Part shown: positions 9,113 to 9,955 of the stretch, piece after piece
How positions within the stretch are numbered: position 1 is the first letter of the stretch
Layout of the letters: each line of letters opens with the position of its first letter
Virus record (IMG/VR): IMGVR_UViG_2529292920_000016
Length of the DNA: 32,229 bases
DNA from: a virus
Lineage: Duplodnaviria > Heunggongvirae > Uroviricota > Caudoviricetes
Direction: 5' to 3' (one strand)
The notes under the pieces: model-generated
Told to the model about the DNA's origin: nothing
The model's database searches: none
The model's input: the letters and a program-made list of their open reading frames with translations, nothing else
Translations under genes and position numbers: made by a program

Positions 9113-9955
9113 ATGAGGAAAAAATCGTTTGGACGTTGCCCGTTTGATTTCGACGAAGATGTAAAAAAAATAGCCGCGATAAATAAATATATCCATGCGA
9201 AATTTGAGAGGCATAAAAATAAAATAGATAACCTAAAGGGGGTGGAACAAAAATTGATGGTTTTACATTACTTTAATGTACTGAATGAACTTAGTAATCA
9301 GGCTATATTTTCTTTGAGTACCGGAGCCTTTTCAGCATCGGAAGTATTAACTAGAGTTATAATGGAACAGGCTGCCAATCAATTTTATATAGCAATTGAT
9401 GATGGAAAAAATGCACAAGCATTACTCAAGGGTAGTAAGAAATTAGTTCATAGTAATGGGAAACGGTGGCTGGAGTGTTTAAAATCCAAAGAAATGACTA
9501 ATCCAGCAGCAGATGAAAGGATTCGTATCGGAAAAGAGCTAACTGATATGTTTAATAGATTGTGGCCAAATACACCTGAATATCCTGGAACCAAAAAGCT
9601 TTTCGAAGTAATTGGCTGGGAAACACACTATCATGCCTATTACGTCCCTCTTTGTGATTCAATACATACATTCTCTGATGATATGGCAAATATAGTATCT
9701 CTATATAATGCAATCCAAAGCGATAAAACTACTGCTATCGAACTCACTCTTGCAGTTAAACAAGAAAATAAACGGCTGGCAATTTATAATGTCGTAATTG
9801 CTATTGGCCTGCGGTGTGAGGCCTTAGTAAATGTATTTAACTCTTTAGGTTATCGAGATATTATAACTGAAATGGCGCCAACAATAGATGCAGTCAACCA
9901 GATTATAATTCGATATGATGATTTCGAACATTCCAGAATTTTTTATTGTCAATAA
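9113..9955 (+). CDS. Hypothetical 280-aa protein, AT-rich cargo gene of unknown function
   Basis: Long ORF in strongly AT-rich DNA with near-consensus RBS; codon usage unlike flanking phage genes. No recognisable catalytic motif apart from a C-terminal R-x5-H (RYDDFEH) that might be a HEPN-type motif (speculative). Confidence 0.6.
   Translation: MRKKSFGRCPFDFDEDVKKIAAINKYIHAKFERHKNKIDNLKGVEQKLMVLHYFNVLNELSNQAIFSLSTGAFSASEVLTRVIMEQAANQFYIAIDDGKNAQALLKGSKKLVHSNGKRWLECLKSKEMTNPAADERIRIGKELTDMFNRLWPNTPEYPGTKKLFEVIGWETHYHAYYVPLCDSIHTFSDDMANIVSLYNAIQSDKTTAIELTLAVKQENKRLAIYNVVIAIGLRCEALVNVFNSLGYRDIITEMAPTIDAVNQIIIRYDDFEHSRIFYCQ

Follow-up and report, generated by a model that had tools for sequence, protein, structure and literature searches.

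The HEPN superfamily is recognized by a metal-independent RNase activity that resides in a composite active site across a dimer. Some HEPN domains do not cleave RNA, and those of sacsin and of the C-terminal part of KNTase bind nucleotides instead. Among the HEPN proteins that act as single genes in abortive infection, AbiV, Abi_2, AbiU2, and the C-terminal domain of AbiJ are said to have been defined by Anantharaman and colleagues in 2013. Defence genes of many kinds are also tracked through the mobile DNA that carries them. Serine recombinases mark defence loci in the Bacillota, where genes of the family DUF5677 are enriched beside, and co-transcribed with, such a recombinase (Andersen et al., 2025; PMC12632615), and these recombinases have already been proposed as bait for new defence cargo. 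Unknown genes from P2 and P4 hotspots often turn out to be defensive: one study of these prophages and satellites documents the tail-gene locus of P2 as a defence hotspot, and of eight loci of unknown function picked at random, all eight from P4 hotspots, six were protective (PMC13586616).

The 32,229-nucleotide stretch of viral DNA analysed here (IMG/VR record IMGVR_UViG_2529292920_000016; “the window”) is a Qin/Rac-type lambdoid prophage. Between its lambda-P-like replication gene and hokD lies an AT-rich island at 8796–13000 (36.7% GC, flanks 48–50%), with a DUF5677 gene at its head, and positions 8000–11400 are 100% identical to strain FORC 064. The features of the island are as follows.

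8796–10545, + strand: 1.75-kb module made up of a 317-nt leader, the DUF5677 gene, and a small tyrosine recombinase (blastn against E. coli S88 locus L002)
9069–9074, + strand: candidate -10 hexamer TATAAT with a weak -35 (sequence reading)
9102–9107, + strand: Shine-Dalgarno sequence AGGAGG, 5 nt 5´ of the ATG (direct sequence reading)
9113–9955, + strand: DUF5677-family gene of 280 aa with an ATG start (ORF list)
10061–10581, + strand: decayed small tyrosine recombinase (RefSeq pseudogene; tblastn with the S88 protein; Pfam Phage_integrase)
10588–10609, no strand: GC-rich hairpin (CAGGGCTGC...GCAGCCCTG) closing the recombinase unit (repeat search)
10994–12367, + strand: Septu PtuA ATPase (PADLOC, E 1.9e-165)
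12345–12983, + strand: Septu PtuB HNH protein (PADLOC, E 5.7e-82)

The ORF at 9113–9955 is a real gene under purifying selection, as follows from a dN/dS of 0.36 against the ~92%-identical (92.6%) allele of E. coli S88, and its product is 100% identical to WP_001227887.1 of E. coli E2348/69. The original prediction had described this 280-residue ORF, its strong ribosome binding site at 5-nt spacing, its AT-rich sequence (34.9% GC in the gene itself), and its place next to a decayed recombinase at the head of an accessory island of the kind that houses defence genes. All of this is borne out: the recombinase is a pseudogene with a frameshift and a ~74-bp deletion, and the island holds a complete Septu system in which the ptuA and ptuB genes overlap (10994–12983). 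The upstream TATAAT that it had pointed to is present and is also found in the P2-prophage copy, whose upstream region is ~90% identical (alignment with E. coli S88), but the -35 is poor and a consensus promoter scan did not call the hexamer. The leader has no Rfam match, an ordinary overall fold (z = -0.98), and no conserved small ORF, and indels occur in it in the S88 copy. A toxin-antitoxin pair was considered and rejected on finding neither an antitoxin ORF or RNA in the leader nor a neighbour conserved across the homologue contexts. A 10-bp stem (AATCTCC... / ...GGGAGATT) at 9057–9096 spans the candidate -10 and ends just 5´ of the ribosome binding site. Outside the island, a truncated and frameshifted DUF1627 fragment at 8399–8601, between gene P and the island (position converted from the E2348/69 annotation), suggests that the ancestral prophage lost part of its DNA when the island inserted. 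On the other side, 3´ of Septu and before hokD, an ORF on the - strand (13243–14331) is annotated as an IS481-family transposase in the E2348/69 copy.

The protein itself had been taken for an orphan of no recognizable family. This is ruled out by three resources that all assign it to DUF5677, a catalogued and uncharacterised family: the Pfam model PF18928 matches residues 49–195 with 37.5 bits against a gathering threshold of 27.1, phrog_4167 matches end to end (E ~1e-176), and RefSeq calls it “DUF5677 domain-containing protein” in E. coli, where 57 of the 5,426 complete genomes have it. The same Pfam model matches all 56 aligned relatives (best E 3.4e-20), and the annotation across every source is either DUF5677 or hypothetical. 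Members are 260–330 aa long without extra domains, bar a few short fragments. The family is rare: HMMER, run exhaustively over 1.84 billion representative proteins, gave 66 matches at E <= 1e-3 (representatives at 50% identity), and the close subfamily, sought with a close-alignment seed in one genome from each of 185,579 species, occurs in only 8 species of Enterobacterales and Pseudomonas. No copy was found in 50,697 sequenced phage genomes, and the plasmid collection contributed one small E. coli plasmid record with a copy. Zero families of PADLOC-DB v2 match the protein at E <= 1. A literature search by family name and accessions found no paper characterising the family and one that bears on its function: a Bacillota DUF5677 ORF was assayed with six phages in E. 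faecalis, and the five candidates that gave protection did not include it (PMC12632615). It is the only protection test of a DUF5677 protein found in the literature.

The suggestion that the protein belongs with HEPN RNases was examined by structure prediction and by profile comparison, with different outcomes. An AlphaFold model built on a 47-sequence alignment has ten helices (pLDDT 91.2, pTM 0.88). The prediction is of an all-alpha protein whose core looks like a HEPN-type bundle, with the up-and-down arrangement of helices that defines such cores. The model matches known HEPN structures with these scores.

2hsb (AF0298): 10.3, over 106 residues at 2.1 A
3o10 (sacsin HEPN): 9.6
1wol (ST0689): 9.5
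4nqf (HEPN-domain protein): 9.3
1ufb (TT1696): 9.1

These matches disappear when residues 1–156 are modelled alone, so the bundle requires residues past 156. A Foldseek search of the PDB gave nothing below E 0.1, and a sequence search of the PDB only noise, e.g. aspartate aminotransferase at E 0.04. No HEPN-clan Pfam model matches any of the 56 DUF5677 members at E <= 1, and the Abi models of PADLOC do not match the protein. Comparison by hhalign with a PF05168 HEPN alignment (42 sequences, built from homologues of sacsin and TT1696, and the sole HEPN family profile compared) gave probabilities of 0.7% and 0.1%, and sacsin HEPN alone gave no signal. Relative to the classical small HEPN proteins of PF05168 (2hsb, 1wol, 1ufb, 3o10), the DUF5677 protein is twice as long, has extra helices, and is missing the signature WL.QA..N...W.CF...TRYP. 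It likewise differs from the single-gene Abi proteins AbiV, Abi_2 (AbiD/AbiF), AbiU2, and the AbiJ C-terminal domain in having no Pfam or PADLOC profile match to them and no conserved Rx4-6H; its own conserved pattern is [ST]xxE..R-x3-E-x3-N followed by SDSxH..ED..N. The HEPN assignment therefore survives only in part. The protein does resemble HEPN proteins in predicted fold and in biological setting, but it cannot be placed in a HEPN family because the motif of the original prediction and the profile comparisons both fail.

The motif in question is an R-x5-H arrangement near the C-terminus. It is listed here together with two blocks that stand out in the alignment. Column counts refer to a close set of 47 relatives (31–87% identity) and a family-wide set of 56 members (14–53% identity).

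9341–9388, + strand: codons 77–92, a block along one face of the helix 73–94 (alignment column counts)
9653–9691, + strand: codons 181–193, a second conserved block (CDSIHTFSDDMAN; alignment column counts)
9911–9931, + strand: codons 267–273, R267-x5-H273 (RYDDFEH), in a C-terminus that reads ...IRYDDFEHSRIFYCQ

R267-x5-H273 is present as described. It lies in the last long helix and ends 7 residues from the C-terminus. Its occurrence is at chance level: shuffling the protein 20,000 times gave on average 1.06 R-x(4-6)-H matches, compared with the one observed, and P(>=1) is 0.68. The motif is conserved in only part of the close subfamily. Most close relatives read R-[H/Y]-D-x-F-D-H at this position, where R267 is kept in 40 of 47 and H273 in 32 of 47. 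Family-wide, the counts drop to 7 and 5 of 56, respectively. Judged by these columns, the conservation of the two residues is not of catalytic grade, and the pair is not a signature of DUF5677.

The conserved residues are found elsewhere. One face of helix 73–94 presents E77, R81 (56/56), E85 (54/56), N89 (54/56), and Y92, and the block at 181–193 contains S/C181, D182, S183, H185 (55/56), E/D189, D190, and N193; W119, P158, F164, Y173, E218, and Y225 are likewise conserved across the family. If the protein is catalytic, the site would be assembled from R81, E85, and N89 on one helix and D182, S183, H185, and D190 at the start of another, and a catalytic role would not run through R267 and H273. 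The window's protein has no canonical, conserved Rx4-6H motif. Among distant members, 19 of 56 carry a His at +5 from the invariant R81 (RVAIEH), which gives a canonical-looking R-x4-H, and in another 17 of 56 a His at position 107 creates R100-x6-H107. The family often has H at position 86 and mostly has R at 100, S at 221, and H at 268, where the E. coli subfamily has Q86, N100, R221, and Y268; at positions 86, 100, and 268, the window's protein thus lacks the His or Arg of many relatives. Gln at position 86 is shared by 47 of 47 close relatives and Asn at position 100 by 36 of 47, and position 268 is His in 47 of the 56 members. From this pattern of residues, the family may descend from proteins with a HEPN-type site that the E. 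coli subfamily does not have.

A survey of homologue neighbourhoods, proposed as a check alongside the original prediction, places the homologues mostly near defence genes or in hotspots, as solitary genes with no conserved partner. It covered 10 distinct settings, namely the lambdoid and P2-like prophages of E. coli and eight homologue contexts, and in a qualitative tally 9 of these have the gene in a prophage hotspot, on a mobile element of another kind, or next to defence genes, whether known or candidate. Its neighbours include a CBASS cyclase with SLATT, nSTAND/Avs-like NTPases, Gabija, Lamassu-like Cap4 with SMC, GAPS4, RelA-SpoT, DUF4365, and Septu, and three further copies lie directly 3´ of a lambda-P-like gene. 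Individual homologue contexts are these.

Erwiniaceae prophage: directly after a lambda-P-like gene, beside DUF4365, NADAR/PRTase, and a GAPS4 nuclease
Enterobacterial contig: after a lambda-P fragment, beside a Cap4 nuclease and an SMC-like ATPase
Metagenomic prophage: 3´ of replication genes
Pseudomonas lurida: flanked by an nSTAND NTPase and a CBASS cyclase with SLATT effector
Pseudomonas sp. B14-6: beside a SLATT_4 protein and an Mrr-nSTAND protein
Pseudomonas fluorescens, one locus: GIY-YIG, RelA-SpoT, and MC5/CTD9 genes
Pseudomonas fluorescens, another locus: Gabija
Burkholderia mobile element: UvrD and an AcrVA2-like gene

The setting of locus L003 contained no defence genes. A second survey, of eight species-representative genomes, met many housekeeping neighbours, several Pseudomonas loci being mostly of this kind, and of the 122 neighbouring ORFs only a handful matched recognised or candidate defence models (Gabija, CBASS, and two candidate families of PADLOC).

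In E. coli, the gene is found as part of the 1.75-kb module, which is ~90% identical between the window and a P2-like prophage. The shared homology stops at 10545, before PtuA. The window's allele occurs in 19 E. coli genomes, and the four inspected have it at the lambdoid hotspot, followed by the decayed recombinase and then Septu. A 92% allele occurs in 38 genomes, and the two inspected have it in P2-like prophages, where it sits between the genes for tail-fibre assembly and tail sheath, the 194-residue recombinase is intact, and Septu is not found beside it. The recombinase adjoining DUF5677 is also intact in Buttiauxella (96% identical), and in P. fluorescens a recombinase of 53% identity adjoins a DUF5677 protein of ~35% identity.

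The recombinase has a wider distribution than its cargo. This ~200-residue tyrosine recombinase (“site-specific integrase”) is found in 801 of 5,426 complete E. coli genomes (15%), which makes it ~14 times more widespread than DUF5677 (57 genomes). Elsewhere, it accompanies a SIR2/adenosine-deaminase operon with an Abi-like gene, a dynamin-like protein, or a CBS-domain protein, and it stands beside unannotated genes at the same lambdoid P-to-hokD hotspot. Its copies were located as follows.

Window: 10061–10620
L027: 6057–6659
L028: 6055–6657
L029–L031: 4501–5103

A dedicated partnership of recombinase and DUF5677 is weakened by this wider spread and by the different cargo, and the recombinase looks like a marker of exchangeable, possibly defensive, cassettes. 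In this, the locus parallels the serine-recombinase loci of the Bacillota, as both combine variable cargo with a small site-specific recombinase in defence-rich surroundings; unlike in those loci (PMC12632615), the recombinase is of the ~200-residue tyrosine type and, in the window, a pseudogene. No attC-like sites or cassette array were identified for the module.

Taken together, the evidence makes us lean, though with less than even confidence, towards a mobile, stand-alone defence candidate of the abortive-infection type, with a HEPN-like core, a non-canonical conserved pocket, and delivery by a recombinase cassette. The ~280-residue, all-alpha protein would act on its own as a single-gene anti-phage effector. 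In E. coli, its gene travels as cargo with the tyrosine recombinase in the 1.75-kb module, which has landed in two unrelated prophage hotspots, one after the lambda-P-like gene of a Qin/Rac-type lambdoid prophage (the window) and one in the tail-fibre/tail-sheath interval of P2-like prophages; in the window, the recombinase has since decayed and the cargo gene was kept intact. That the protein serves in defence, that it does so by abortive infection, and where its active site lies are what we infer. A bolder version, in which DUF5677 is a new single-gene anti-phage family whose R-x3-E-x3-N and SDSxH..ED..N residues replace Rx4-6H and which spreads in an integron-like manner as cargo of minimal cassettes, driven by a ~200-residue tyrosine recombinase that would bring many other unknown cargo genes into prophage and island hotspots of E. 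coli as well, is in our estimate rather unlikely.

Other explanations draw on much of the same evidence. The original reading, a canonical HEPN ribonuclease toxin with R267 and H273 as catalytic residues, is very improbable. The motif is there, most close relatives share a version of it, it lies in the last long helix, a polar residue comes after R267 as in many HEPN motifs, and the predicted fold is compatible with such a toxin, but the chance-level frequency, the retention of H273 in only 32 of 47 close relatives, the near absence of both residues family-wide, the proximity of the pair to the C-terminus, the lack of a HEPN profile match, and the presence of the invariant residues elsewhere all stand against it. 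That the protein is instead an accessory factor of the adjacent recombinase, such as one that sets directionality or DNA architecture for a small cassette, mobile or invertible, is improbable too. It would account for the homologous recombinase found beside DUF5677 in the lambdoid and P2-like prophages of E. coli, in Buttiauxella, and in P. fluorescens, for a 3-kb DUF5677 segment in the last species that is bordered by 41-nt inverted repeats and looks inverted, and for the enrichment and co-transcription with serine recombinases in the Bacillota (PMC12632615). Most DUF5677 homologues, however, have no recombinase nearby, the recombinase occurs in 801 E. coli genomes against 57 and with quite different cargo, and it has decayed in the window while the DUF5677 gene is intact and under purifying selection.

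A part as third component or regulator of the downstream Septu system would fit the common strand, the distance of ~1 kb to PtuA, and the shared AT-rich island. It is highly improbable, since the recombinase pseudogene and a non-coding gap separate the two, and neither the P2-like prophages nor any other context examined has Septu beside DUF5677, the homology between contexts ending short of ptuA. The constant co-occurrence with PtuA and PtuB that such a part would require is thus not seen, and the link was rejected on this ground. More weight, while still on the unlikely side, goes to some other prophage accessory role: anti-defence, modulation of superinfection or lysogeny, or a non-catalytic, nucleotide-binding HEPN-like protein in a hotspot that accepts any cargo. 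Hotspots do hold anti-defence and other accessory genes, a neighbour in Burkholderia is AcrVA2-like, the sole heterologous defence test of a family member was negative, some classical HEPN domains (sacsin, the KNTase C-terminal domain) bind nucleotides and leave RNA uncut, and His residues common in relatives are lost from the window's protein. Against this, many homologues sit in chromosomal Pseudomonas defence islets and not in phages (0 in 50,697 phage genomes), and the strongly conserved polar constellation suggests an enzyme or a specific ligand site.

If the tentative defence reading is right and the protein is protective, DUF5677 would be a compact single-gene defence family with a HEPN-like fold and a different set of conserved residues, and would show something of how much divergence from Rx4-6H chemistry the HEPN scaffold allows. 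If it is not protective, the gene is one more accessory gene of prophages, ordinary in kind and from a catalogued DUF family. As it stands, a defence screen could reasonably include it, though it does not stand out as a candidate. Of the by-products, the small tyrosine recombinase, widespread and with variable cargo, is the most interesting: being present in 15% of complete E. coli genomes beside variable, mostly unannotated genes, it might serve as bait for new defence cargo, as already proposed for the serine recombinases.

Several minor observations concern the ends and surroundings of the module. A 13-nt inverted repeat, at 8712–8724 (TGGCACAGGGTTG) and 10602–10614 (CAGCCCTGTGCCA), brackets it, the right arm overlapping the hairpin, and CTGTCAG is found in three direct copies (8895–8901, 8927–8933, and 10584–10590). 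These repeats could be recombination sites or chance. The right repeat and hairpin also end the recombinase unit in other E. coli loci; the left copy is found only in the window's context, and an inverted repeat of such length is only mildly unlikely by chance. As possible ends of a cassette, the 13-nt pair is noted here as an observation only. In the P2-like prophage of S88 (L002), a “GTP pyrophosphokinase” (RelA/SpoT-like) gene is placed on the opposite strand among tail and baseplate genes (1657–2736), and just past the recombinase a 125-residue ORF (10552–10929), possibly encoding a membrane protein, is also on the opposite strand.

The P. fluorescens locus L012 (4473–7700; L025 is alike) has 41-nt inverted repeats at 4564–4604 and 7593–7633 around the 3-kb DUF5677 segment. 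The bulk of the recombinase gene is upstream, on the opposite strand, and ends in a junk C-terminus. The true C-terminus with the catalytic Tyr (EASLIYRRTKN..LLGHTKLESTVRYLG) is found downstream on the + strand. From this arrangement, the segment looks to have been inverted by recombination within the 3´ end of the recombinase gene itself.
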